Positions 1 through 12,784 of a stretch of DNA of 55,393 nucleotides are shown here, piece after piece (the stretch's first letter is position 1; each line of letters starts with the position of its first letter). A program made the translations under genes and the position numbers. The stretch spans positions 1 through 55,393 of the forward strand of contig RFNT01000117.1 in the NCBI GenBank assembly GCA_009927045.1. The letters are read 5' to 3'. Below the pieces are notes generated by a model. The model saw nothing but the letters and a program-made list of their open reading frames with translations. It searched no databases and had not been told where the DNA came from. The stretch comes from a bacterium (GTDB taxonomy: Bacteria > Bdellovibrionota > FAC87 > UBA2466).

Positions 1-2043
1 AGCCACTTCACGAGTGGCTTCCACTTCACTTTCCGCAGGCGCATCAAATCTCTGGGTGCGCTCTAAGTTCAAAGCCTTCTTAGCTGCGCTCAGTGAAAGC
101 TTGAGCTGTGCTAAATCAGTAAAATGGCTTTTAGGAATATTCTCCTCATCTAAAATAACCACTTCATCTGTTGCTGTGTTGTGTTCTCCCGCAATAAACA
201 CTGTATCCAATGGAATTGAAATTCCTTTCAGCGCTAGAGCATTCCTCACCCGCTGATCATTAAAGATTTCAACAGCCACTCGAGCGTTGGGAGCTCCTCG
301 GTGTCCTCCGCAAGCACCGCAATCTAAAGCTGATGCATACGCATTGTTGGTGGTACTACTGCCATGGCCACACAATAATACGAGTCTCCCAAAGTTTTTG
401 AGAAGCCCCATGATTCTCAGTGAGTTCTCCGCAATTGCGATCTGATCAGGCATCGGGATTCCCAGTTGGTAAGAGCCCACTGGTTGGGCCTCCCGAACTT
501 CAACCACAGGGACCGTTTGAGGTTTCTCACCCCACAACCGCTGAAAACTCTCCTTTACTTTCTTTAAGCCAGTAGGAGCCCAACTTTTTAAAAACATAGA
601 AAAGAAACCTAGGCCTCCAAACGTTTCCACCATTGCAAAAGGAGATACCGAAGTGTTCTTTACTTCGTGAAGAGCGTGTTCCAATGCAACTTCAGCCTCT
701 TTCTGACTCAAGTATTTGGCCGCTTGATAGCGGTTGGGATTTTTGAGTGACTCGCGTACCAAGTATTTGGGGCGAATCAAAACCGGGCACTGAGCAGCGA
801 TTTCGGTTTCAACAAACCCCTGGTGTGCAAGTGGCACTGCAAAGAAGCCCGCGAAGCCGTAAGTATCGAATCGTCCTTGATGCTCCAGATTTCTTCTGAA
901 CGCTTCAGAACGAACATCGATACAAAATACCGCCTGGGCCTGAGGTCTTAATTGGCTCGAGTTTTCCAGAGACAAGCTGAGTTCTTTTGCGTCTCCGAGC
1001 TTTTTCAACAAGCTCTCTCTATAGTTTCGCTCGTAAGCCTCAAGCCAAATGAAGCCAGCTCCAGACGTCCTTGGTCCAGCTGATTCTCGAAAAGTGAGTT
1101 GTTCCTGCGCTCTTTGAACCATCCCTTCCCAAGGATTTCTTTTGACCCACTCATCGGCAAATACCTGTTGGGCACCCACGACATCATAAGCAAGACGGAC
1201 AGCCAGAAAATCATAAAGTGGCTTCAGCTTTTCTTCATTGGAGAAAAAGTTCAGATCCCGACCTAAGTTGGCCATCAGACCCGCCCATCCAGGTGAAGCT
1301 GCAAAGTGCCGACTCAAATAGTCTCTCAGAAACTGGACTGGAATCCCCAAGTCGGCAATCATTCTTTTTATAGCCAAAAGGCTGTCCACGGGAAGGTTTT
1401 TCACGTAATCGCGAAAACCTTCCACTCCCGCTCGTTCAAAACTCTCATCATAAATAACCAGGCTCTTCCAAGCGTTATAAAACCCTTGCTGCTTTCCGGG
1501 CATTGCCCAAGCCGCTTCTCCCCTATCAAAGTAGGCTGCACACCACTTGCTGATTTCCGCCTGCATAGCGGGATAGAGCTTAGTCGCCGTCAATTGGTCC
1601 GCCCATTCACTGAGCATTAAAAACACTTCCTGCAGAGGCTGTTCTGAAGTGCTAGACTTTTCATTTTTAGCTTCTTCAATCAAGAGCTGAGATAGCTCCG
1701 CAGGAGACATGGAAGGATCGAGTTGCTCGACAGTATTCACTAAGTCCTTGGTGGTGATTCTACCCTTCTTGAACTGCTCATGGAAAAAGCTTAAGTCCGC
1801 AACACCACGAGCATGAAAAGTCTTCCGAGCTACTTCAACTGCTTCTGAAAAAGGAAGCTTTTCAAATCCCTGAAGGGGGTTCACAGCGATAAAGTTCGCT
1901 AATGGCCAAATGGGAGCTACTTGCTCACAGGCCTCTAAAATGGCTTGCTCTACACTGACAACTGAATCTTCTTGCTCTCTGCGGTCATTTAGAGTGAGCA
2001 CTCTCAGCGTATTTTTTGTAGCTGTTATGTTTTGAGTAAACAT
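1..2043 (-). CDS. dabA: DabA/MpsB (DUF2309) inorganic carbon transporter, beta-carbonic-anhydrase-like subunit; partial, 3' end beyond window
   Basis: Not in the ORF track because it runs off the edge. Segments translated by hand from ATG 2043 (SD GAGGGAG), all in one frame: APIWPLANFIAVNPLQGFE, IWLEAYERNY, AVFCIDVRSE, LCGHGS, LDCGACGG. These are the DUF2309 motifs including the Zn ligands. Confidence 0.93.
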   Translation of the reverse strand, partial: MFTQNITATKNTLRVLTLNDRREQEDSVVSVEQAILEACEQVAPIWPLANFIAVNPLQGFEKLPFSEAVEVARKTFHARGVADLSFFHEQFKKGRITTKDLVNTVEQLDPSMSPAELSQLLIEEAKNEKSSTSEQPLQEVFLMLSEWADQLTATKLYPAMQAEISKWCAAYFDRGEAAWAMPGKQQGFYNAWKSLVIYDESFERAGVEGFRDYVKNLPVDSLLAIKRMIADLGIPVQFLRDYLSRHFAASPGWAGLMANLGRDLNFFSNEEKLKPLYDFLAVRLAYDVVGAQQVFADEWVKRNPWEGMVQRAQEQLTFRESAGPRTSGAGFIWLEAYERNYRESLLKKLGDAKELSLSLENSSQLRPQAQAVFCIDVRSEAFRRNLEHQGRFDTYGFAGFFAVPLAHQGFVETEIAAQCPVLIRPKYLVRESLKNPNRYQAAKYLSQKEAEVALEHALHEVKNTSVSPFAMVETFGGLGFFSMFLKSWAPTGLKKVKESFQRLWGEKPQTVPVVEVREAQPVGSYQLGIPMPDQIAIAENSLRIMGLLKNFGRLVLLCGHGSSTTNNAYASALDCGACGGHRGAPNARVAVEIFNDQRVRNALALKGISIPLDTVFIAGEHNTATDEVVILDEENIPKSHFTDLAQLKLSLSAAKKALNLERTQRFDAPAESEVEATREVA

Positions 2044-2074
2044 TCTGTTTCTCCCTCAGTTTAAAGTTTTATTT

Positions 2075-3751
2075 TCAATGATAGGTCTGGATATCCTTCT
2101 CCAGAGCTAAGGTTTCGAAACTCGGCATCAACTTGGTTTTACCCAGGACTTTTAAAATGATTTTTCTCCAAGCTTGCTCCACATAAAAGTGATTGAGACA
2201 CAAAACGTAGAGCTTCTTAGACCACTCTTGCTCCTGGGAAAGCCGTGCCATTTCAACCATCACATAGACAGCAATGAATACGACAGCGGTTAAAGCGACC
2301 ACAGCAGGATTCAAGTCTCCCACTAAGCCCACTGTTTCATCAGCTCCCAAAACTGGCCCTAACCACTGAGTAATGGCTCCTAAAAGAGTCCAGTAAAGTA
2401 CCATCCCACCAAAAGAGATGACTGAAGTCGCCAAGAGCGATCGCACTCCGCCCGAGCTTCCCACTACTGGTGCTAGTGCCTGCAAAGCACTGATCCACAA
2501 GAAGAGACACAAGAAGAGTCCTCCAGGTTTCGCGTTTACATCGATACTCAACACCAAAATGCTGGTAACAAGAATTACAAAAGCAATCAGACCAGCGATT
2601 AAACGAGAAGCAAGTGAGGTTTCTGTCACGGGCTGCTGATTTCCGTACATAATGGGTTTGAGGTCCACTCGACCAGCAGCACTTAAAAATGCATGCGCCT
2701 TGTAGTACCCGTGCATGATCAAGTGCAAAACTGCGGCGGCAAAAGCGCCCAGCCCACATTGCATCATCATGTATCCCATCTGAGCAATGGTGGAGTATGC
2801 AAGTGACCGTTTTGCATCGGTTTGAACGAGATAAATCAAACCACCGAACAAAGCAGTCAACGCCCCCAGGATGAACAGCAAGTGAAGCGCAGTGCTGGCA
2901 TGTCCGACCAGGGGACTCAGTCTCACAATGAGAAACCCACCCGCATTAATAATCCCTGCGTGCATGAGCGCTGAGACAGGTGTGGGAGTTTCCATCGTAT
3001 CTGGCAGCCAAATGTGGAATGGAAATTGAGCAGATTTCGTCATCGCACCCAACACATAAAAGGAGCCGAGCACAGCAAATGGATTCAACGACATTCCCAA
3101 GAATTGAATCGGATCCCAGCTTCCATGATTCCGGGCGATTTCGAAAATATCTTTCAATTCGAATGTGCCGAAGACCGTATATGTGAGAACCAAAGCAGCA
3201 ACGAGAAATAAATCACCCAAACGACTGATTACGAATTTTCTCCAGGCCGCTTTCTGGGCAGATTCACGTTCGGAGAAATGGAGTAAGAGCTGATGCACCC
3301 CCGAACTCACTAAGAACCAAGAAAGAGTCAGCCCCAGAAGATTTCTACTGACCACAAAGAGGGTGACTGAAAACAAAACGAAAGACAGCCAGCTAAAGAA
3401 CCTTCCTTGGTTTGGGTCCCCATCTAAATATCTGACTGAATATCTCTGAACGATAAGACCAATACTAGTGATGAGCAACACAGAAAGAACTGAGAGCCGA
3501 TCAATCCAGACACCAATCGAGAAGTGAAACCCAGCAGGGTCCCCTAGAATTGCATAGATGCGATCAATCGATCCTTCGGTAATCACGCCGTAACCAAGCC
3601 CAATAGCCGCTAAGAAAGCAATGGCTGCTCCGCCAGCAGATATTTTTCGCATCAGGGGAGCATTTTCTTTGAGCTTTAAAAATCCCAATACCGAGACAAA
3701 AAGGGGCGTTCCAAGAACTGCTAACGCTGCGACCGAGAATAGTGAATCCAT
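2075..3751 (-). CDS. dabB: DabB/MpsA, NuoL/NdhF-like proton-conducting membrane subunit of the DAB carbon pump
   Basis: Motifs SRLGDLFL, KSAQFPFHIWLPDTMETPTPVSALMHAGIINAGG, YSTIAQMGYMMMQCG, HGYYKA. Directly upstream of the DUF2309 gene. Start placed at ATG 3751 behind SD GGAGG. Confidence 0.9.
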   Translation of the reverse strand: MDSLFSVAALAVLGTPLFVSVLGFLKLKENAPLMRKISAGGAAIAFLAAIGLGYGVITEGSIDRIYAILGDPAGFHFSIGVWIDRLSVLSVLLITSIGLIVQRYSVRYLDGDPNQGRFFSWLSFVLFSVTLFVVSRNLLGLTLSWFLVSSGVHQLLLHFSERESAQKAAWRKFVISRLGDLFLVAALVLTYTVFGTFELKDIFEIARNHGSWDPIQFLGMSLNPFAVLGSFYVLGAMTKSAQFPFHIWLPDTMETPTPVSALMHAGIINAGGFLIVRLSPLVGHASTALHLLFILGALTALFGGLIYLVQTDAKRSLAYSTIAQMGYMMMQCGLGAFAAAVLHLIMHGYYKAHAFLSAAGRVDLKPIMYGNQQPVTETSLASRLIAGLIAFVILVTSILVLSIDVNAKPGGLFLCLFLWISALQALAPVVGSSGGVRSLLATSVISFGGMVLYWTLLGAITQWLGPVLGADETVGLVGDLNPAVVALTAVVFIAVYVMVEMARLSQEQEWSKKLYVLCLNHFYVEQAWRKIILKVLGKTKLMPSFETLALEKDIQTYH

Positions 3752-3781
3752 GTAGGGCTCCTCCGTGTAACCTTGCAATCG

Positions 3782-3848
3782 ATAATACGGAAGAACCCTA
3801 GTTTAGTAAAAATAGATAAATATTATTGGTGTTATCGTATAAAACGAA
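3782..3848 (-). promoter_or_regulatory. dabBA promoter with four-box LysR operator
   Basis: Minus strand TTCG-N7-CGAT-N7-ATAA-N7-CTAT (3848-3812), then TTTACT-17 bp-TATTAT (-10 at 3787-3782). Same layout as the terC and hpf promoters. Confidence 0.65.
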
Positions 3849-5221
3849 TCAGCTTTCTCCGAGGACCGCTTTGAGTGTGGCAAGATTTTTTTGATACTCA
3901 GCCAAAGCCTCTACTTCCCGGACAGCTGCGTCGGCAGTAGCTTGTTCGCGAATGTTTACAAAGAGTTGGTTGCTGTCGCCTTGTCGGAACCGGATCCTTT
4001 CGCCCTGCTCCAACTTTCTGGCTAACTCCGTTTCGCGATGAGTGAGATCCGATCTTAAAGCAGCCGCATTTAAAGCCGAACGAGAATCCCAGAGTTCAGT
4101 TGCAATTTTATCTCGTAAAAAACGCTCTTGGAGCTCCAGTCGCATTCCAGTTGCGATGGCACTGTCTTCGCGACCTCCAGCGATATTGGCCTGCAGAGGA
4201 ATTTCTAGCACGATACCCGCATCGAGCCGGGGATCATTACGGGTGGGATCACCTTGTTGGATGCTTTTGGCTGCCTGTAGCTGAACGTCTATTCGAGGGG
4301 CAGCCTGATTCGAGGCTAGATCTCGCTCGATGGCATTCTGCGCTTTCAGCATTTCAAAACGCTTCAATTCGGGACGCTTCTGTAGAGCTTCTTCCACTCC
4401 TGCTTTAGGCTCTTCGTTCCTGTCGGGAACAGGAATCGTGCTTCCCATCTGCTCGTCGCCCGCAAGCAATGGGTTTCCTTGAGCATCTCGCCAAAATAAT
4501 GATAAATCAATCGTTGCTTGTTGAAGCGAGCGCTCAGCACTTACCAATTGGGACTTTCTCTGAAGAATAGCTCTTTCGTTATCCCGTCGCTCAAACTCAG
4601 GTAAGTCTCCCGCTTTGACTCGTTCTTTCAACCCTTTGTCGCGTTCCTCTGCAATCCGCAGCAGCTCCTGATAAATTTTTACTTTGAGACTTGCTGAAAC
4701 CCAGTCCCAATACCGATGTGTTGCAGTCCGTATGGACTCAATCCGCTGCTGCAGAACCTGAAGATCCGCCACAGTCAGTCCTAACGTTGCTTTTTGAATA
4801 TTGGCTCTTCGCCGATCCAATGGACCATCTCGCCAATAGGAATGGCGAGCCCCGCACGCAATTCACCTGCTGGGTTCGTCACCATTTTTCCATCATAAAT
4901 AGGAAAATCACCGATTCCTAAGCGATACCCCGCAAATAAAGAAGCCCCCCAGAGCGTGGTCGGTTGCTCCAAGACGGAATCTACCGTTTTATTTTCGTAA
5001 TACCCTAACAGAGTGCTTCCAGCTCGAGTCCGCCATTGAATATCAAAAGCACCTTCAGAGGCGCGAACTTCACCTTGTGCGGATTCAACATCTTTGCGGG
5101 CACCTTCTAATAAGGGATAGCGGTCGCGCACCGACTGGAGCACCTCAGAGAGTGACAAAGGCTTACAATGAGCCAGAGAACTGAGTCCAGCAAATAAAAT
5201 GATCGTTATCCGAAACATCAC
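3849..5221 (-). CDS. TolC-family outer membrane efflux protein (one frameshift near 4836)
   Basis: ORFs 4781-5221 (signal peptide, LSLSEVL, ASEGAFD) and 3849-4820 join as ...GLAIP(x)WRDGPLDRRRANI... if one base is restored. OEP helical repeats; ERIRFRQGDSNQLFVNIRE. Confidence 0.85.
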
Positions 5222-5224
5222 TTC

Positions 5225-6292
5225 TTAAGTTCCCTTTTCAGATTTACCCAACGGAACCACCATGTTTTTTCCAGGCTCTGGAAAACTGGGCGGAAATCCG
5301 TTGAACCGACGCCAGAGTTCGTAACCTAAAGTGACTCGATTGAGGAGCACCCAACCGATGGCTCTTACGCCTTGTCTTAGGTAAGTCCCGTCAGGCCAGG
5401 GTTCATTCTCCAGTGGAATGAGGACCACTCGAAATTTTCCGTTGCCGCTATCGCTCGGATCAATAAGTGTGATTTTTCCACCATAAGTGCCATAAGCAGC
5501 GCCCGGCCAACCACTGAATTGGATCGCAGGCCAGCCTTCAAATTGAAGCCGCACTTCGGCTCCATCTCTGAGCAGAGGAACGTCATTTCCATCGATCCAA
5601 AGTTCAACCGCTCTTGAATCCGTGTCTGGAACGATACTGGCTAGGAATTGTCCTGCTTTCACGATTTGAGCCCCCTGCCCGGAAATCACTCGCTGGATTG
5701 TTCCTGCGATGGGGGATTTTACAGATTGGGTCATTTGACGTGCCAAACGAACATCCATACGCGCCAGTTCAGCAGAAGCATTTGCTTCATCGACCAAAAA
5801 CTTGGTGTACTCTAAATTTGCCTGTTCCAGAGCTCGGCGTGCGCTCAATCCTTTTTCGACGAGCACCTTTTGCCGATCTAAATTGATTCGCGAGGTTTGA
5901 ACCGCTGCTTCTGCTGCCATCACTCGTTTGCCCAAAGCATCTCGCTCCTCTGCAAGGCGTTTCAGAATTTCGGGATCATTATCCGTAAGTTCCACAATGA
6001 GATCCCCTTCTTTTACTTTAGTTCCCTCCACTACATGCCATTTTTGAATGCGCCCATCCACAGGAGCGCTGATGTCTTGGATCCGATCGTTTGGGGAATA
6101 CCCAATCACTCTTCCAGAACCTCGTGCGGTCTGTTGCCAAGGCAAAACAATGAGAGCAATCCCCAAAAACACAAAAAGCCCAATGAAGGCGCCAAAAAAG
6201 CGTTGATAATTTCTGGAACTACTCACTAACTGGAGCGCCTTGGGAACCGGTTGGACTCCTTTAATTTGAAATTTTTCAATGGGTGCAGCCAT
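5225..6292 (-). CDS. HlyD-family membrane fusion protein
   Basis: One N-terminal TM, lipoyl half-motifs ISAPVDGRIQKWHVVEG and VKSPIAG, coiled coil, VRLQFEGWPAIQFSGWP. Confidence 0.9.
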   Translation of the reverse strand: MAAPIEKFQIKGVQPVPKALQLVSSSRNYQRFFGAFIGLFVFLGIALIVLPWQQTARGSGRVIGYSPNDRIQDISAPVDGRIQKWHVVEGTKVKEGDLIVELTDNDPEILKRLAEERDALGKRVMAAEAAVQTSRINLDRQKVLVEKGLSARRALEQANLEYTKFLVDEANASAELARMDVRLARQMTQSVKSPIAGTIQRVISGQGAQIVKAGQFLASIVPDTDSRAVELWIDGNDVPLLRDGAEVRLQFEGWPAIQFSGWPGAAYGTYGGKITLIDPSDSGNGKFRVVLIPLENEPWPDGTYLRQGVRAIGWVLLNRVTLGYELWRRFNGFPPSFPEPGKNMVVPLGKSEKGT

Positions 6293-7958
6293 TATGCTGA
6301 CCTCCGCTGAGTCAGTGAATCCAATGAAATAATCACTTCACACCGTTTAGCCAAATTCATATCGTGGGTTGCTAAGACCAAAGTCCAAGGGGCTTTGGGA
6401 TCGAGTAATAGCTTGAGGGCTATTTCTCGGGATTTCTCATCCAAATCATCCAGGGTTTCATCCACGAGGACTAAGCGAGGTTTGGTAACAATCGCACGAG
6501 CCAGAACAATGCGATGGACTTGCCCCACAGAGAGAGGACGCCCCTCTCCACTCAACTGGGTATGAATGCCTCGAGGTAGCTGAGTGATTTCATCTAGGAG
6601 CCCCAACTGGGCCAATGCTGCCCGCGCACTCTCTAGGGTGACTTCAGGGCGTCCCATACGAATATTATCCAAAATGGTGTCCGAAAGAACTTCCAGCCCC
6701 CTCACAAGCGCTATTTGATCTCGTAAACTTTCTTTGGAAACATCTCGGTAATCATTGCCGTCAATGAGAACTGCGCCGCTCTTGGCATCCGAATGCCAAA
6801 AAGCAAATCCACGAGGGTAGTTTTTCCTGAGGAGTTGGAACCTAAGAGAGCAACTCGAGAGCCTGGTTCAATTTTAAAAGACACTTGTTTGAAAATAGGA
6901 TCTTGAGAGTCATAGGAGTAAACCAAATCACGAGCTTCCAATCCAGCTGGGCCATGACCTCCCTTCAACTGGATTCCCGTTCCCTGTTCCAGCGGTAAAT
7001 TGAAAAGACCGTCCAACTTATCTAACGCGGCAATGAGATCATAAAAGGCTTCTAAATGTTTTTGAAATTTGGCTAAAGACCCCAGAGCAGTCGTTACGAC
7101 AATTTCTGCTGCTACTAATTGTCCAAGAGTCAGTTGGCTCTTGATCACCAAATAGGCACCCAGCCCCAGAAGTGCTGAGCTTGCGACTGCTTGCAGGGCC
7201 AATGACCCCAAGACCTGTCTCATCAGTATTTTGAAGTGATCACTCCTAGCTCCCAAATAACCTTGAACTACTTCATTTGCTTTTTCTAAAGCCAAACCGC
7301 GTGCTGCTTGGGACCTAAATAGAATCGGGCGTGCCGCCAGATCCTCTAGCCAAGCAGCAACGCGATATTTCTGCACTGATTCCTCAGAACTCGTGAGCAG
7401 AGCTCCACGACCCAATCCAAAAAGAATAATGCCTACAGTGGCGACTAAGACAATCGCAAAGGCCAGCAGGAACCAATGGTAAAAAGCGAGTAAAACGAGT
7501 CCCAGAACGATTTGCAGCAACAATGCAAAGCCATCGAGCAAAAGCGTTGCTCCACTTTTTTGAACTGTAAGAACATCGAAGAACCTATTGACCAATTCCG
7601 GAAATCTATTTTTGGAGGCGCCTTCTAAGTGCAGACGCGGAATCCGATAAGCAAGTTCCAGAGCCACTTGTGTAAAAAATCGTTTTTGAAATTGCTCTAC
7701 TATACGGATTTGAATCGCTCTCAAAAAAGCAGCTGCTGAGAGCCCCACAAAAACTGCCAAAACTAGAAAAAGAACGGGTTGGCTCAAAGAACCAAAGTTC
7801 ACTGTACTGACGAGAGTCTGAACGCCCACAGGGATGGCTAAGGACAAAACTCCAACACCCATGCCATACGTAAGAATGACCGCAATTTCAGACCGCTCCC
7901 CGCTCAACATGGAAACGAGTAATTTGGTCGGTGATATTTTGTGTCCAGGCTCTGCCAA
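6292..7958 (-). CDS. Type I secretion-like ABC transporter, permease + ATPase (one frameshift near 6782)
   Basis: ABC membrane domain (QLTLGQLVAAE) and Walker A GSNSSGKTT in 6711-7958. Signature LSVGQ, Walker B LVLVDE and H-loop ATHD in 6292-6705. Adding one A joins them (MPKSGAVLIDGNDYRDV). Confidence 0.85.
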
Positions 7959-8026
7959 AGCAACCTCTTTTACTTCTTAAGTATCGGTTTTTTTGAGTGA
8001 AATATTGACCTCGGTGAACTCCCGGT

Positions 8027-9010
8027 TTAGCGCTCCGCGCCACTTCGCGCTTTTACCCAAGAAACAGCGATGGAACCACCAATCAGACACACGATGATGC
8101 CCAGTGACCAAGTCACTGGAAACTTGCCATCAAAAGCTGGGTTGAGCCACGCCATTTTGAGTCCAACAAAAACTAAAACAGCTGCTAATCCATACTTAAT
8201 ATAACGAAACTTTTCGAGCGCTCCAGAAAGCATAAAGAACATCGACCGAAGGCCTAGAATCGCAAAAATATTCGAAGTAAAAACAATGAGTGGCTCACGG
8301 GTGAGAGCAAAAATGGCTGGCACTGAATCAATCGCAAACAGGATATCGCTCACTTCGATGAAAAGCAGAGCTAAAAATAAGGGGGTAGCGTAGCGAACGC
8401 CGTCTCTTTTGATGAAAAACCGACTGGGAGCAGCTGAAGGATCTATTCTAAAGAGCCTTCTCAAAAACTTCATAAACCATACGCGCTCCGGATCCATCAT
8501 TTGGGATTCCGAGAAAAACATTTTAATTCCAGTAACTATAAGAACCAGTCCAAAAAACACGACCACGGCATGGTAAGCCATGAGTTGAGAGCCCAATGCA
8601 ATGAAGAGAGCCCGGAACAAAAGTGCTCCTAATATTCCAAAAAAGAGTACTCGGTGTTGGTATAACCGAGGAATCCCAAAATAGGAGAAGACAATGGCAA
8701 AGACGAAAATGTTATCCACTGCCAACGATTTTTCGACGACAAATCCAGTTAAAAATTCGAGCGCCAGTTGCTTCGCTTTAACCAGCCCCTCTCCGGCATC
8801 CCCTAACTTAGAAATACAATAAAAGTAAAATCCGATATTGAAGACGCCTGCCAGCAGGAACCATGTCAGCGTCCAAAGCGAAGCTTCCCGGAAGGTAACC
8901 TCATGGGCTTTTCGATGAAAGACTCCAAGATCGAGGGCAAGCATCCCAAGAACAAAAATAGTAAAGCCTAAGTAAAACCACCAATATTCAGAAAAAGGAA
9001 AAATAAGCAC
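8027..9010 (-). CDS. terC: TerC/Alx-family integral membrane metal-homeostasis protein
   Basis: Motifs LALDLGVFHRK, EKSLAVDNIFVF, YQHRVLFFGILGALLFR, DILFAIDSVPAIFA, SNIFAILGLR. Confidence 0.92.
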   Translation of the reverse strand: MLIFPFSEYWWFYLGFTIFVLGMLALDLGVFHRKAHEVTFREASLWTLTWFLLAGVFNIGFYFYCISKLGDAGEGLVKAKQLALEFLTGFVVEKSLAVDNIFVFAIVFSYFGIPRLYQHRVLFFGILGALLFRALFIALGSQLMAYHAVVVFFGLVLIVTGIKMFFSESQMMDPERVWFMKFLRRLFRIDPSAAPSRFFIKRDGVRYATPLFLALLFIEVSDILFAIDSVPAIFALTREPLIVFTSNIFAILGLRSMFFMLSGALEKFRYIKYGLAAVLVFVGLKMAWLNPAFDGKFPVTWSLGIIVCLIGGSIAVSWVKARSGAER

Positions 9011-9033
9011 TTTCAGCCTTCTCTCAAATATTG

Positions 9034-9099
9034 AGTATCGGTTTTTTCCTTGAATATTTACAATAGATAAATTTCCTGTTATCTATCACAAAAAACAAT
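9034..9099 (-). promoter_or_regulatory. terC promoter with four-box LysR operator overlapping the regulator start codon
   Basis: Minus strand ATTG-N7-TGAT-N7-AGGA-N7-CTAT (9099-9063), -10-like GATACT at 9039-9034. Also contains the perfect inverted repeat ATAGATAA-N8-TTATCTAT (9063-9086). Confidence 0.6.
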
Positions 9100-9982
9100 G
9101 AATAATTGGCTCAATTATCACCATCTCTATTACTTTAAAACGATCGCTGAGGAGGGCAGTGTCTCCAAAGCCGCTGAAAAACTTCGTTTGGGACAACCCA
9201 CCCTCAGCGCCCAATTAAAACAGTTCGAGGACCATCTAGGAATCCAGCTCTTTGAGCGCCAACACAAGAAGCTCATCCTGACTGAGCAAGGCCAAGTTGC
9301 TTTGGACTATGCTCGGAATATTTTTAAGATGGGGTCCGAATTGATGGAAGTTTTGAATGACCGGTTAGTCCCTCACAAAACTTCTGTCCAAGTTGGGGCC
9401 TTAGATAGTGTTGCCAAACAAGTGATAGTTCAATTGGCCAAGCACGCCTATAAGACCAACGATTGTTTGATTTCGCTGGTGGAGGGCAAGTCCGATGAAT
9501 TGCTGAGAGAACTGGTCGCTCATCGCATTGATATCCTTGTTACGAATTTTCTACCTTCTGGTATTCATGCCAAAGGGTTATTTCACCGAAGTTTGATCAA
9601 AAAAAGCATTGGAATTTACGCGGCTCCCACATTCAAGCGACTCAGAAAAGATTTTCCAAAGTCCATTACGGGCCAACCGATGATTCTCCCAACCTACGAC
9701 AGCAAGCTCCGTTATGATTTAGAACACTGGAGTCAGACACAAAAGATCGCTCTCAACGTAGTCGCTGAGAGCCAAGATATTGCTGTTAAGAAATTGATGG
9801 CTGTCAGTGGCATCGGCCTCATCCCGGCCGCAGCTCATGCGGTGACCCGTCAAGTTCTAGCGGGTGAATTAGTCGAGCTCGGGGAACTTCCTGGGATTTT
9901 TGAAGAACTTTTCTTGGTAAGCGCTGGCCGAAAAATTGAAAATCCCATTGCTGCGCAATTGATGAAGACTTTTCAAATATAG
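9098..9982 (+). CDS. nhaR: LysR-family transcriptional regulator, NhaR-like
   Basis: N-terminus WLNYHHLYYF..EGSVSKAAEKLRLGQPTLSAQLKQFE is typical of the NhaR subfamily; LysR substrate-binding domain follows. Confidence 0.8.
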   Translation: MNNWLNYHHLYYFKTIAEEGSVSKAAEKLRLGQPTLSAQLKQFEDHLGIQLFERQHKKLILTEQGQVALDYARNIFKMGSELMEVLNDRLVPHKTSVQVGALDSVAKQVIVQLAKHAYKTNDCLISLVEGKSDELLRELVAHRIDILVTNFLPSGIHAKGLFHRSLIKKSIGIYAAPTFKRLRKDFPKSITGQPMILPTYDSKLRYDLEHWSQTQKIALNVVAESQDIAVKKLMAVSGIGLIPAAAHAVTRQVLAGELVELGELPGIFEELFLVSAGRKIENPIAAQLMKTFQI

Positions 9983-10045
9983 TTTTTTTCAATCCACTTA
10001 ATTGAGTTTTTCCATTTTATTGGCCTTGCCCGCTTTTTTTATACT
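9979..10045 (+). promoter_or_regulatory. hpf promoter with four-box LysR operator
   Basis: ATAG-N7-CAAT-N7-ATTG-N7-CCAT (9979-10015), 24 nt gap, -10 TATACT (10040-10045). Confidence 0.65.
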
Positions 10046-10051
10046 GTGGGT

Positions 10052-10402
10052 ATGATTCAAATTACTTTTAAAAACTTGGAACGGTCTGAACTTGCTCAAG
10101 AGGCAGTGCAGGATCGTCTGCATGAGGCTTTAGAGCGCTTTCCGGACTTATCTCAGGCTAAGCTGCTTGTCACTCTTGCAATGGAGAACTCCCCTCGTCA
10201 AACCGGACCTGATCTGTTTCGAGTTAAATTGCGAGTCTCCGGCGGCAAGTACCATGGGGTTATTCTTGAAAAAGAAGCCTCTAGTTTGTATGCAGCCTTG
10301 GCGGAAGTGAACGAACATCTCTTGGAACGACTGAATCGGTTTGGTGATAAATTCCGAGTCAAGGCCAGAACACGAGAACGAAAACTTCTGATTTCTCAAT
10401 AA
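10052..10402 (+). CDS. HPF/RaiA-family ribosome-associated protein
   Basis: MIQITFKNLERSELAQEAVQDRL...SSLYAALAEVNEHLLERL matches the S30AE/HPF pattern. ATG 10052 preferred over GTG 10046. Confidence 0.75.
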   Translation: MIQITFKNLERSELAQEAVQDRLHEALERFPDLSQAKLLVTLAMENSPRQTGPDLFRVKLRVSGGKYHGVILEKEASSLYAALAEVNEHLLERLNRFGDKFRVKARTRERKLLISQ

Positions 10403-10553
10403 TCAGGGCTGACGGACATGCTCAAACTGTATTCACCCAAATTATTCAATAGTTTCCCGTGTATTCTCCACCACATTGAGAATACGACCAAATTTTCAGC
10501 TCTTTTCCGCTGAGTTCTTGTGGCCATTCTCAGCTAGCGAGAAGTGGCCTGTA

Positions 10554-10937
10554 TTATGCACTTTCTTCTGATAATTCTTGAACCTTTTGAAGAAACTCAT
10601 CCAGATCGATGGGCTTCTTTAGGATCACCGTATTTCCTTGCGCAATCGGCATTCTCTTTTCGGAGGTTGCACTGATGATTAAGGTGGGTAAGTCTTTGAA
10701 TTGATCTGAGTTATTTTTTTTATCAAGGAATTGCCACCCGTCCATAATGGGCATCATCAGGTCGAGGACGAGAACTGAAGGGCGGCTTTTCATGTGTACC
10801 AATAACTCCCAAGCTTCTTTACCGTTGCAAGCGGTATCCACATCATACCCCTCCAAACTTAAAGCCACTTTGAGTAGTTCTCGGATATCGGTATCGTCCT
10901 CAATCACTAAGAGTTTTTTTGATTTCTCGCTTCGCAT
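10554..10937 (-). CDS. Single-domain response regulator (receiver)
   Basis: LLVIEDD, LVLDLMMPIMDG, IISA, LKKPID; no output domain. Confidence 0.92.
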   Translation of the reverse strand: MRSEKSKKLLVIEDDTDIRELLKVALSLEGYDVDTACNGKEAWELLVHMKSRPSVLVLDLMMPIMDGWQFLDKKNNSDQFKDLPTLIISATSEKRMPIAQGNTVILKKPIDLDEFLQKVQELSEESA

Positions 10938-11010
10938 CTGTGGGTCTCAAAATAGCTCGCGTCTTGTTTTAGTAAAGCGAATTCCAAATTCTTTTTTTAA
11001 AGTGCGCTGG

Positions 11011-11043
11011 TTGCAAAATGAAAGATGGCCTTTCAGTTTGCAA
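11011..11043. promoter_or_regulatory. Putative enhancer (UAS) for a sigma-54 activator
   Basis: Inverted repeat TTGCAAAATGAAA-N7-TTTCAGTTTGCAA (12/13 match); each arm is a near-palindrome TTGCA-N3-TGCAA. Confidence 0.55.
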
Positions 11044-11085
11044 GATCTCAAACAACGAAATGATCGGTTCTGCTGCTCTGAGGTT

Positions 11086-11101
11086 GGGCACGGCTTGTGC
11101 A
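11086..11101 (+). promoter_or_regulatory. Sigma-54 (-24/-12) promoter
   Basis: GGGCACGGCTTGTGCA: GG(11087-88)-N10-GC(11099-100), close to TGGCACG-N4-TTGC. Confidence 0.6.
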
Positions 11102-11151
11102 CATCTGACTCCAGAACAAAAAAAACAACACTGCAGGGGGATTCTTTCGAG

Positions 11152-11382
11152 ATGACATCACCACATAAAAAAGACAAGCCAGTATGCCTCAATATTCTTT
11201 CGCACACGCTTAAAACACCCCTCACCAGTCTGAAGCTTGAGCTTCAACTCGCGCTGAGAAGACTGAGTGGGCAGGAAAAGCTTTCAGAGTCAGAGCATCA
11301 GTTAAAGGACTCGTTAGAGTTCTCACTTGAAAGAACCAATATTATGATCCAAATGATTTGTCTCGTTTTAGGGGAGGCCTGA
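11152..11382 (+). CDS. Stand-alone HisKA/DHp-domain small protein (76 aa)
   Basis: ILSHTLKTPLTSLKLELQLALRRL is an H-box helix with no ATPase or sensor domain. ATG 11152 follows CAGGGGG; the stop is 1 nt before the next ATG. Confidence 0.7.
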   Translation: MTSPHKKDKPVCLNILSHTLKTPLTSLKLELQLALRRLSGQEKLSESEHQLKDSLEFSLERTNIMIQMICLVLGEA

Positions 11383-11383
11383 T

Positions 11384-12784
11384 ATGCAAGTATTCATTAT
11401 CGATGACGAACCGGAAATTTCCCGCTCTATGGCACATATTATTGCACCCTTCAAGCTCCAGACGAGCTGTTTCAATCATACAGCGACTGTTTTATCAGCA
11501 ATGAAAGAGACCCCCCCTGATTTGGTCTTCTTGGATTACCGCCTAGGAAGTGAAAGTGGCCTGGCACTCATTCCACTCATTCTCCAAGAAAATCCTTCTG
11601 CCTATATCGTCATGATGACTGCTTTTGCTAGTTTTGAAGTCGCTCTTGAGGCCATGAAGTTAGGAGCTAAAGATTTTCTTAAAAAGCCGTTTTCGCTGGA
11701 GGAAGTAGAAATCATTGTGAAACGCTTCACCGAGCTTTCAAATCTGAAAAATCGTCTCAAGAATTTAGAAGAGGAATACGGGACGGATCAAATTCTTCTG
11801 GAATCGAAAAACCCGAAAGTGAAGGAACTGTTGAGGTTGGCAAAAAAGGCGGCTCAAAGTCAATCGGTAGTGCTCATCACCGGGGAAAGTGGTTCTGGTA
11901 AGACAGAGCTGGCGAAGGCCATCCACAGTTGGTCTTGCCGCCAACAGTTTCCTTTTGCGACCGTAGCCTGCCCTACATTAAGTGCTGACTTACTTGAGAG
12001 TGAACTGTTTGGACACGTCAAAGGGGCCTTTACAGGTGCAGTAGCCCACCATCAAGGACGTATTGCCAAGTGTGAGGGCGGAACGCTTTTTTTAGATGAA
12101 ATTGGAACCTTGCCACTCAGCCTGCAACCCAAACTGCTTAGATTCTTACAGGATTTTTCTTACGAACGGGTAGGAGATACCACAACTCATAAAGCAGACG
12201 TGCGTATTATTGCAGCGACGAATGCGGATTTGGCAAGTTTAGTCAGACAGGGAGTTTTTCGAGAGGACTTATTCTATCGGTTGAATGTGATTGAGCTCCA
12301 TTTACCGCCCTTGAGGGAGCGACCGGAGGACATCGAAGCGCTTTCACAGATTATTTTGCTCAAATTGTGCAAGAAACATGGGCGAGCCCCGATTCGCCTT
12401 ACTCAAACTGAACTGAGATCGCTTTCACAGCACCCGTGGCGTGGAAATATTCGGGAGCTCCATAACACTCTGGAGCGGGCCTTGATTTTTTCAAATGAAG
12501 GCGAGCCACTGCAAATTCATTATCAACCTTCTCTTCTCCCCACACAAAGCGCTCCCACAATTCAGGTTGGAGGTCCTCATACACTAGAAGAAGTTGAAAA
12601 GGCTCACATTGAAGCAACTCTCGCAAGGTTGGATAGCATCGAGGAGGTTTCACAAGCGTTAGGGATCAATCCCTCAACCCTCTGGCGAAAAAGAAAGACC
12701 TATGAAGAGCAAGCTAGATCCGTATTTCCTGGTGATGACTCCAAGGTGGGCACTCCCTCATCAGATCCGGGGACCATGCATTAA
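11384..12784 (+). CDS. Sigma-54-dependent response regulator (NtrC/AlgB-like bEBP)
   Basis: REC domain (IIDDE, FLDYR, KKPF), AAA+ domain (GESGSGKT, ESELFGHVKGAFTGA, TLFLDEIG, FREDLFYRLNV), Fis-type HTH (LGINPSTLWRKRK). Confidence 0.95.
   Translation: MQVFIIDDEPEISRSMAHIIAPFKLQTSCFNHTATVLSAMKETPPDLVFLDYRLGSESGLALIPLILQENPSAYIVMMTAFASFEVALEAMKLGAKDFLKKPFSLEEVEIIVKRFTELSNLKNRLKNLEEEYGTDQILLESKNPKVKELLRLAKKAAQSQSVVLITGESGSGKTELAKAIHSWSCRQQFPFATVACPTLSADLLESELFGHVKGAFTGAVAHHQGRIAKCEGGTLFLDEIGTLPLSLQPKLLRFLQDFSYERVGDTTTHKADVRIIAATNADLASLVRQGVFREDLFYRLNVIELHLPPLRERPEDIEALSQIILLKLCKKHGRAPIRLTQTELRSLSQHPWRGNIRELHNTLERALIFSNEGEPLQIHYQPSLLPTQSAPTIQVGGPHTLEEVEKAHIEATLARLDSIEEVSQALGINPSTLWRKRKTYEEQARSVFPGDDSKVGTPSSDPGTMH

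Follow-up and report, generated by a model that had tools for sequence, protein, structure and literature searches.

The contig RFNT01000117.1 of a Bdellovibrionota genome (assembly GCA_009927045.1; 55,393 nt, hereafter the window) raises the question of whether a single LysR-type regulator, encoded at 9098-9982, governs three neighbouring promoters through one operator: those of dabB, which encodes a subunit of the DAB inorganic-carbon pump, of a terC/alx family gene and of a hibernation factor-like (hpf-like) gene. The genome, labelled G000, consists of 263 contigs and 2.39 Mb, of which the window is contig C36. The three predicted sites (Table 1) are probably copies of one conserved, directional operator of this NhaR-like regulator. 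What the sequences show is the element itself, its specificity within the genome, a constant spacing, an association with the regulator gene and repeated occurrence ahead of the same families of genes.

A first-pass annotation of the window had described, before each of the three genes, a 37-bp stretch of four 4-nt boxes with N7 spacers that ends shortly before a -10 hexamer. Read back from the sequence, all three stretches were as given. Site 1 reads TTCG-N7-CGAT-N7-ATAA-N7-CTAT and is followed after 24 nt by TATTAT (3787-3782), site 2 reads ATTG-N7-TGAT-N7-AGGA-N7-CTAT and lies 23 nt before GATACT (9039-9034), and site 3 reads ATAG-N7-CAAT-N7-ATTG-N7-CCAT and lies 24 nt before TATACT (10040-10045), the gaps matching those claimed. 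Site 2 reaches into the lysR start codon with its box 1 and holds a perfect palindrome, ATAGATAA-N8-TTATCTAT, that is unique in the genome. Site 3 is the most degenerate of the three, with TTTTCCAT where TTATCYAT would be expected; its first bases coincide with the lysR stop codon, so that coding imposes a further constraint on its box 1 (ATAG). The 10-mer TTTATCTATT occurs seven times in the genome, and two of these occurrences are sites 1 and 2. The loose box consensus proposed by the annotation fitted sites 1, 2 and 3 with 1, 2 and 0 mismatches, respectively, but showed no enrichment in the window, and the search was therefore performed instead with a position weight matrix (PWM) derived from orthologous loci.

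To build this matrix, sites were collected by an anchor alone, the 8-nt TTATC[TC][AG]T no more than 160 nt from either end of a LysR gene of at least 45% identity, which yielded 33 distinct sites. The 43-nt PWM was constructed from 29 of them, all from other genomes, and no site of G000 was used; the four left out were the reverse reading of a palindrome, two sites without a distal half and one near-duplicate. When all 4,748,668 positions of G000 were scanned with this matrix, site 1 ranked first (32.1 bits), site 3 fourth (26.5 bits) and site 2 fifth (23.3 bits), with ranks 2 and 3 occupied by C122:7913(-) at 29.2 bits and C55:6573(-) at 28.3 bits. These five were the only positions above 20 bits, versus none in each of three block-shuffled genomes; above 15 bits there were seven, versus 0, 1 and 1 in the shuffled genomes. 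A further match, C51:48(-) with 18.9 bits, falls within a dnaN-like reading frame at the end of a contig and was treated as a false positive.

The columns of the 33-site set that carried information peaked at -29 to -26 (A, T, C/A, G), at -24 to -20 (TTAAA) and at -18 to -15, where box 2 is formed by C-18 (31/33), G-17 (25/33) and A-16 (30/33) followed by T/A. Further peaks were found at A-7 (27/33), at the anchor and the TTT after it, and at a TAnnnT from +31. The resulting box consensus was A-T-[C/A]-G for box 1, C-G-A-[T/A] for box 2 and C-[T/C]-A-T for box 4. The four-box layout of the annotation was upheld for these three boxes, which coincide with conserved columns, but not for box 3, of which only the first base, A-7, is conserved. 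Since conservation falls on exactly these three boxes and on the opening base of box 3, both the N7 register and the spacing to the -10 hexamer are real features of the family. The conserved core exceeds the four boxes and reads ATCG-nTTAAAa-CGAT-N14-TTATCYATTTt. A second set comprised 79 non-redundant sites of at least 25 bits from other genomes; having been picked with the same PWM, it is independent only in its flanks. Its consensus was gtAT[C/A]GnTTAAA[A/G]CGA[T/A]-N14-TTATC[T/C]ATTTt, followed after ~20 nt by a -10 hexamer TAnnnT. Conserved flanking positions were A+15 (68/79), T+16 (58/79), C+29, A+32 (60/79) and T+36 (59/79). Of the TAnnnT hexamers, 36 started at +31 and 12 at +32.

Boxes 1 and 2 form a distal dyad, ATCG-N7-CGAT, which is a T-N11-A motif with three or four of its four positions complementary in 53 of the 79 sites; boxes 3 and 4 form the proximal dyad. 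The annotation had taken the layout for a LysR-type operator, and it was borne out in this: the element lies on both sides of LysR orthologs in many genomes and consists of two T-N11-A dyads spaced by 22 bp, of which the proximal one adjoins a weak -35 hexamer. Counted from the predicted -10, with the transcriptional start assumed ~7 nt after it, the distal dyad is centred at ~-65 and the proximal dyad at ~-43, which we take to correspond to the positions of the BenM sites. A third T-N11-A, from T+3 to A+15 and centred at ~-34, is possible. Measured in this way, the layout matches what is expected of a canonical LysR promoter.

LysR relatives at E <= 1e-40 were present in 23 of the 41 related genomes searched, and a related-locus search added 22 further named contigs. 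At the orthologous loci the directional element recurs directly past the LysR stop codon and, reversed, before the LysR start. Conservation of the box spacing upstream of orthologous dabB, terC and hpf-like genes had been named beforehand as the point on which the operator would stand or fall, and the spacing proved to be fixed, every match of the ungapped PWM having identical box spacing. The dabB site lies at the same place in 4/4 genomes of the genus that have dabB, G000 included (32.1-41.3 bits); the site before divergent terC was present in 5/5 orthologous loci (31.9-42.2 bits); and the site before an hpf-like gene that follows lysR was present at the same place in 8/8 (38.9-46.4 bits). 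The dabB gene itself was detected at E <= 1e-90 in four of 40 other genomes searched, its orthologs in three genomes of the genus being 62-67% identical. Each dabB site in the genus precedes a CCG-TAnnnT and a conserved leader; the site of a distant dabB copy in G023 scores 17.5 bits.

The motif was also sought without reference to LysR genes, using the strict pattern CGAW-N14-TTATCYATTT over 201 genomes of the phylum. There were 113 matches in 80 of these genomes versus 25 for a reversed control. A PWM match above 18 bits was present in four of 30 loci returned automatically by the pattern search and in 19 of 40 further loci chosen by hand (21 had none); the other strict-pattern rows were LysR-flanking sites already known or were left out of the locus set. 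Among the 23 pattern-found loci above 18 bits, 12 had a LysR relative at least 54% identical and four a more distant LysR, and seven lacked a LysR homolog in the 3-kb stretch retrieved. When relatives bearing a LysR relative (E <= 1e-88) were compared across both searches, 14 of 17 had the strict pattern; most genomes without one had no match, and the matches in G009, G032 and G035 failed the PWM. The pattern alone is noisy in distant families, in which many of its matches are not this operator. A different conserved sequence, CGATATTT.TGGCG.AA.TTATCCATTT, in family f8 genomes (L080-L084, L088, L090), was matched by the strict pattern but not by the PWM and was set aside. In several f8 assemblies it is located near the beginning of contig 1, at ~650-900 nt, and could represent an origin or part of the dnaA region.

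A paralogous LysR clade (47-53% identical; L014, L017, L024, L015 and L018), mostly divergent from beta-carbonic anhydrase genes, is accompanied by nearly the same operator, changed chiefly in the outer bases of the dyad (TTCG...CGAA). Two such LysR regulators occur together in some genomes (G007, G010, G022 and G028), in which cross-talk or split specificity between the paralogs is possible. G000 contains only one such LysR gene at E <= 1e-40.

By its sequence the regulator qualifies as a LysR-type transcriptional regulator, with HTH_1 and LysR_substrate domains, T-N11-A sites and a divergent target with an operator between the two genes. Its best match among 49 NCBIfam models was NhaR (NF008284) with 134.9 bits, which does not reach the equivalog cut-off of 219 bits; the runner-up scored 89.8 bits and CbbR 57.7 bits. 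It shares 26% identity with E. coli NhaR over 291 residues, the full length (E 9e-32). The nearest solved chains by sequence were CatM (E 2e-14), BenM (3e-12), an OxyR and a Rubisco-operon regulator, matched mostly over the DNA-binding domain. The label 'NhaR-like' used in the first-pass annotation is fair on these grounds, and appears justified as a resemblance, not as membership in the family.

The distal dyad, TCGnTTAAAAC-GA, resembles the NhaR motifs quoted in PMC6307784, namely TcgtaAaAAac from a PRODORIC matrix and TCgaAAAAatCtA from a rebuilt T-N11-A consensus. In 3 kb of the E. coli nhaA-nhaR region, the best PWM match (CTCGTAAAAAACGAA, 106 nt before nhaA) had 9.5 bits, a score reached in 20 of 2000 shuffles. 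Pfam found no nhaA in positions 1-12784 of the window, and no nhaA-family gene is the next gene downstream of any of the five G000 sites above 20 bits; in one relative, G110 (L120), a 25.4-bit site precedes a Na_H_antiport_1 (NhaA) gene.

The genes downstream of the 79 sites were clustered by BLAST, with Pfam labels placed on representatives. HPF-like genes followed 20 sites, terC genes 11 and baeRF family 3-like genes nine (three exceeded the Pfam cut-off, three fell short of it and three were placed by clustering alone). A ~50-amino acid lipoprotein followed seven, dabB six, beta-carbonic anhydrase genes six (all Pfam-confirmed), and TonB-like and 155-amino acid lipoprotein genes two each; CFA synthase, SulP, TerB, DUF1275, NhaA (25.4 bits) and an ABC exporter were single cases. 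The carbonic anhydrase genes lie mostly beside the paralogous LysR clade. The ~50-amino acid lipoprotein-like peptide (MSNLLVL...SC...SPGYQ.GRQ), preceded by the operator in seven loci upstream of the LysR gene (L035-L038, L040, L042, L044), matched no Pfam family. In three loci (L120, L126 and L127, of G110, G047 and G068) the order is lysR, a site of 40-45 bits, baeRF and an hpf-like gene; a baeRF family 3 gene was searched for in G000 and not found.

Two genera have an ABC-HlyD-OEP tripartite exporter between the regulator gene and dabBA (in G157 at L107, G157:C118, 1544-5678). The G157 locus runs from lysR through a divergent site, the ABC-HlyD-OEP genes and a second site to dabB, and the ABC exporter gene there is preceded by a 38.2-bit operator site of its own. 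This order indicates that the exporter separating terC from dabB in the window is part of the same unit.

The two remaining G000 positions above 20 bits are candidate sites before genes without a Pfam family (182, 167, 199 and 211 amino acids; Table 1). The 182-amino acid gene at the C55 site has one close ortholog, in G003 (46% identity), with a 20.9-bit site, and four distant paralogs without a site. At the C122 site, the 211-amino acid gene has a homolog in L042 that follows a 36.0-bit site, and the 199-amino acid gene has no relative in four other genomes of the genus.

From the sequence we infer that the 9098-9982 protein binds these sites, that it activates rather than represses, and what its inducing signal might be. 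In the proposed mechanism the distal dyad ATCG-N7-CGAT, at ~-65, would be the high-affinity regulatory site, and the proximal element A-N10-TTATCYAT (boxes 3 and 4), at ~-43 and abutting the weak -35 hexamer, would be the activation site. A tetramer of the regulator positioned on these sites would, with inducer, aid RNA polymerase at three promoters: those of terC (probably with the downstream ABC-HlyD-OEP exporter), of dabBA and of the hpf-like gene. As the terC-facing site overlaps the lysR start, autoregulation would be expected.

The inducing signal may well be Na+ or alkaline-pH stress, to which we assign just short of an even chance; the NhaR likeness, TerC/Alx and the NhaA gene of one relative point in this direction. 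Limitation of inorganic carbon, to which DAB, carbonic anhydrase and SulP point, is a reasonable but lesser possibility, and some other signal is less probable still. At high pH free CO2 is scarce, and the hydration of CO2 gives cytoplasmic protons; for this reason the two signals overlap chemically. It is conceivable, and is proposed only tentatively, that in this non-autotrophic predatory lineage the DAB pump and beta-carbonic anhydrase serve mainly as cytoplasmic generators of protons and bicarbonate for pH and ion homeostasis rather than in the supply of carbon, switched by an NhaR-type sensor of cations or alkalinity, and that the same switch raises TerC, the exporter and a ribosome shut-down module consisting of the divergent HPF with or without baeRF.

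Several observations weigh against a single activating operator at the three promoters. From the window alone the claim of a shared layout would be weak: the loose consensus, at up to two mismatches, had 18 matches in the window versus 13.2 +/- 4.4 in shuffled sequence, and 19 of 100 shuffles reached 18. Box 3 is conserved at one base only, and the proximal dyad is weakly symmetric, with at most two of four positions complementary in 65 of the 79 sites. Site 3 departs at its A from the TTATC that is kept in at least 77 of 79 sites at each position. The promoters of terC and the hpf-like gene fail a sigma-70 consensus scan, which only the dabB promoter passes, and the start codon of the hpf-like gene (ATG 10052, conserved in the alignment) is only 6 nt past the predicted -10, so that its mRNA could lack a leader or arise by read-through from lysR. 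The tally over 79 sites is biased, most loci having been fetched around LysR genes or by a motif-derived pattern, the sites of at least 25 bits having been selected with the same PWM and many of the genomes being close kin. The SulP-carbonic anhydrase fusion of G000 (C109) has no site (best score -12.3), and, since the paralogs use a near-identical operator, the motif alone does not tell which of them binds where two exist.

The unenriched loose consensus is what would be seen if the three stretches were chance likenesses among AT-rich promoter regions, but that explanation is hardly tenable and is refuted by the ranks 1, 4 and 5 obtained with a matrix from other genomes, by the lack of shuffled matches above 20 bits and by conservation at orthologous loci. 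It is very unlikely, too, that some other factor binds the element and that its place beside the LysR gene is incidental. The seven pattern-found loci in which the fetched 3 kb held no LysR homolog would fit such a factor, but the site lies on one or both flanks of the LysR gene in essentially every orthologous locus examined, the element contains T-N11-A dyads, and the strict pattern follows the presence of the LysR gene among relatives. A repressor operator, at which the LysR protein would cover the -35 region and block the promoters until stress relieved the block, would account for a proximal element that abuts or overlaps the predicted -35 and for a terC-facing site that covers the lysR start codon. 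It is nevertheless unlikely: the -35 hexamers are poor (TTTACT, TTGTAA and TTATTG), and only one promoter of the three passes the consensus scan, features that are typical of, and fit, activator dependence. Dyads centred at ~-65 and ~-43 are, moreover, the arrangement commonly seen at LysR-activated promoters (PMC11495319).

The same operator and regulator could instead constitute an inorganic-carbon sensor, in which low CO2/HCO3-, or a metabolite reporting it, would induce DAB, carbonic anhydrase and SulP, in the manner of CmpR and CcmR/NdhR in cyanobacteria, with TerC and HPF as passengers. The occurrence of the site before three kinds of inorganic-carbon gene (dabB six, beta-carbonic anhydrase six and SulP one, of 79) speaks for it, as do the high-CO2-requiring phenotypes that the DAB preprint attributes to LysR mutants of H. 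neapolitanus (10.1101/476713). However, the commonest targets, HPF-like genes and terC, are not carbon genes, the nearest named family is NhaR with CbbR far lower in score, nhaA carries a site in one relative, and the SulP-carbonic anhydrase gene of G000 lacks one; the carbon sensor is possible but doubtful. The reading retained is that of an activating operator of the NhaR-like regulator. The three matching sites reported in the first-pass annotation are real, and its interpretation of them is supported as far as computation reaches.

Table 1. Positions of the predicted operator sites, of the genes around them and of related features elsewhere. Positions without a contig or locus label refer to the window.
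Feature	Position	Strand	Remarks
dabA	1..2043	-	Truncated at contig/window start; Pfam DabA PF10070, 554.4 bits
dabB (NuoL/Mrp-like subunit)	2075..3751	-	Pfam Proton_antipo_M 162.8 bits, Proton_antipo_N 46 bits
Predicted dabB promoter	3782..3810	-	TTTACT-17 nt-TATTAT; sigma-70 consensus scan, 9/12 matches
Predicted operator site 1	3808..3850	-	Contains 37-bp stretch 3848-3812; directly 3' of the OEP stop codon, faces dabB
OEP/TolC-like outer-membrane efflux protein	3849..5221	-	Pfam OEP 71.4 bits
HlyD-type membrane-fusion protein	5225..6292	-	Pfam HlyD_3 58.2 bits
ABC exporter (permease/ATPase)	6292..7958	-	Split by frame change near 6777-6783; Pfam ABC_tran in both pieces
terC/alx family membrane protein	8027..9010	-	Pfam TerC 165.5 bits; NCBIfam TIGR03718 367.4 bits (cut-off 246.4)
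Predicted operator site 2	9059..9101	-	Contains 37-bp stretch 9099-9063; divergent terC/lysR region, faces terC
LysR-type regulator, NhaR-like	9098..9982	+	Pfam HTH_1 74.4 bits (cut-off 26.6), LysR_substrate 54.1 bits (cut-off 28)
Predicted operator site 3	9977..10019	+	Contains 37-bp stretch 9979-10015; begins on lysR stop codon, faces hpf-like gene
HPF/YfiA-like gene (S30AE domain)	10052..10402	+	Pfam Ribosomal_S30AE 35.7 bits (cut-off 23.7)
Other S30AE gene	G000:C18:3141-3410		80.8 bits
Other S30AE gene	G000:C83:244-534		47.7 bits
Further candidate site, G000	C55:6531-6573	-	28.3 bits; before 182- and 167-amino acid genes, then split amino-acid permease (L052 1299-2869)
Further candidate site, G000	C122:7871-7913	-	29.2 bits; between 199-amino acid gene (then isocitrate dehydrogenase) and 211-amino acid gene
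Best PWM match, E. coli K-12	L138 584-626		Contains CTCGTAAAAAACGAA, NhaR-type motif

The dabA and dabB genes share a strand with 31 bp between the gene calls, and the start of dabB was set at ATG 3751, which is preceded by GGAGGAG. A DabA-family protein encoded beside a NuoL/Mrp-like DabB is the arrangement by which DAB genes are recognized, and the pair is assigned to them by sequence. The OEP gene consists of two overlapping open reading frames (3849-4820 and 4781-5221), and its counterpart in G157 is a single open frame of 469 codons from stop to stop. The ABC exporter gene was traced by tblastn with the intact 554-amino acid ortholog of G157 as query, which switches from frame -2 to frame -1. 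The frame breaks in these two genes and in the amino-acid permease gene at C55 are either assembly errors of the metagenome-assembled genome (MAG) or real pseudogenes. The terC and lysR genes diverge from a region of 87 bp. Many alx/terC genes have a leader RNA switch (yybP-ykoY or PRE). An Rfam scan of positions 1-11000 at E <= 1 matched no RNA families, and this span consequently contains no terC riboswitch of either kind. The predicted terC leader is only ~17 nt long, and control of terC through the LysR operator appears to take the place of a leader RNA switch.

The hpf-like gene is the third S30AE gene of G000; in a genome search the three scored 80.8, 47.7 and 35.3 bits, the copy in the window being the most divergent. 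Its product passed the Pfam S30AE cut-off and, with 26.5 bits, fell under the cut-off of 40.9 bits of NCBIfam TIGR00741 (HPF/YfiA), which marks it as a divergent S30AE member. An AlphaFold model computed from a 20-sequence alignment (19 relatives) had a pLDDT of 88.7 and the elements E-H-H-E-E-E-H, and the modelled protein is predicted to have the beta-alpha-beta-beta-beta-alpha fold. When the model was compared with the PDB using Foldseek, the first 39 rows were all hibernation factors or hibernating-ribosome entries (HPF, pY, RaiA, YfiA), with best TMq values of 0.72-0.76. The region 3' of the gene, 10554-12784, contains a response regulator gene (-), an overlapping open reading frame with a HisKA fragment (+) and a gene for a sigma-54 activator with a receiver domain (+).

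The system is linked to E. coli NhaR and the nhaA promoter by the best NCBIfam model, by 26% identity, by the nhaA gene that carries the site in one relative and by a distal TCG-N7-CGA dyad with an A-rich spacer that resembles the published NhaR motifs and the sequence upstream of nhaA. It differs in scoring below the equivalog cut-off, in that the regulator is not beside nhaA, and in its targets (DAB, TerC, HPF-like, baeRF and carbonic anhydrase), which are outside the nhaA, osmC and pgaA set given for E. coli NhaR in the PMC6307784 abstract. The LysR promoter model set out in PMC11495319 has three sites with T-N11-A dyads, and promoters of the BenM/CatM/CbnR type (one regulatory and two activation sites, 'sliding dimer') resemble the present ones in their symmetric distal T-N11-A, weaker proximal sites beside the -35 and divergent regulator. 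Unlike theirs, the half-sites here are ATCG/CGAT and TTATCYAT rather than ATAC/GTAT, and the third site is suggested by A+15 and T+16. The cyanobacterial proteins CmpR and CcmR (NdhR) are LysR regulators of CO2/HCO3- uptake genes. Their regulons are alike in placing a LysR regulator over inorganic-carbon uptake genes, whereas the present regulator comes from a MAG of a heterotrophic member of the Bdellovibrionota, stands nearer to NhaR than to CbbR-type models and has TerC and ribosome-associated genes in its regulon as well. The gene-neighbourhood association of baeRF with HPF described by Burroughs and Aravind 2019 (PMC6514570) agrees with the lysR-[site]-baeRF-hpf units of L120, L126 and L127. 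That article's account of the association describes neither a LysR operator nor a link to ion or carbon genes, although its Figure 3F and supplementary data may include baeRF-HPF neighbourhoods with LysR genes.

In the literature searched, supplementary files aside, no description was found of an operator for DAB genes or of this regulon. The account of H. neapolitanus LysR mutants in the DAB preprint (10.1101/476713) reports them without an operator, and a 2026 preprint on B. subtilis describes the regulation of carbonic anhydrase and MpsAB genes as not understood (PMC13622662). Judged by its sequence, the present case would be a canonical LysR-type system whose regulon content is unreported and biologically suggestive. 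Its value lies in that content and in the lineage, the largely uncultured Bdellovibrionota; the regulator is an ordinary LysR-type protein. For the regulation of DAB/MpsAB pumps and carbonic anhydrases in heterotrophs, a defined 43-nt predicted operator and a named regulator gene offer a testable handle. The company of the DAB genes, which includes an NhaR-like regulator, TerC, NhaA, carbonic anhydrase and SulP, suggests that they act in the homeostasis of pH and ions, and the shared operator before divergent HPF and baeRF genes is a candidate stress input for the baeRF-HPF pair. If the tentative proposal of a cation- or alkali-sensing switch were true, one operator would couple ion stress directly to translational hibernation.

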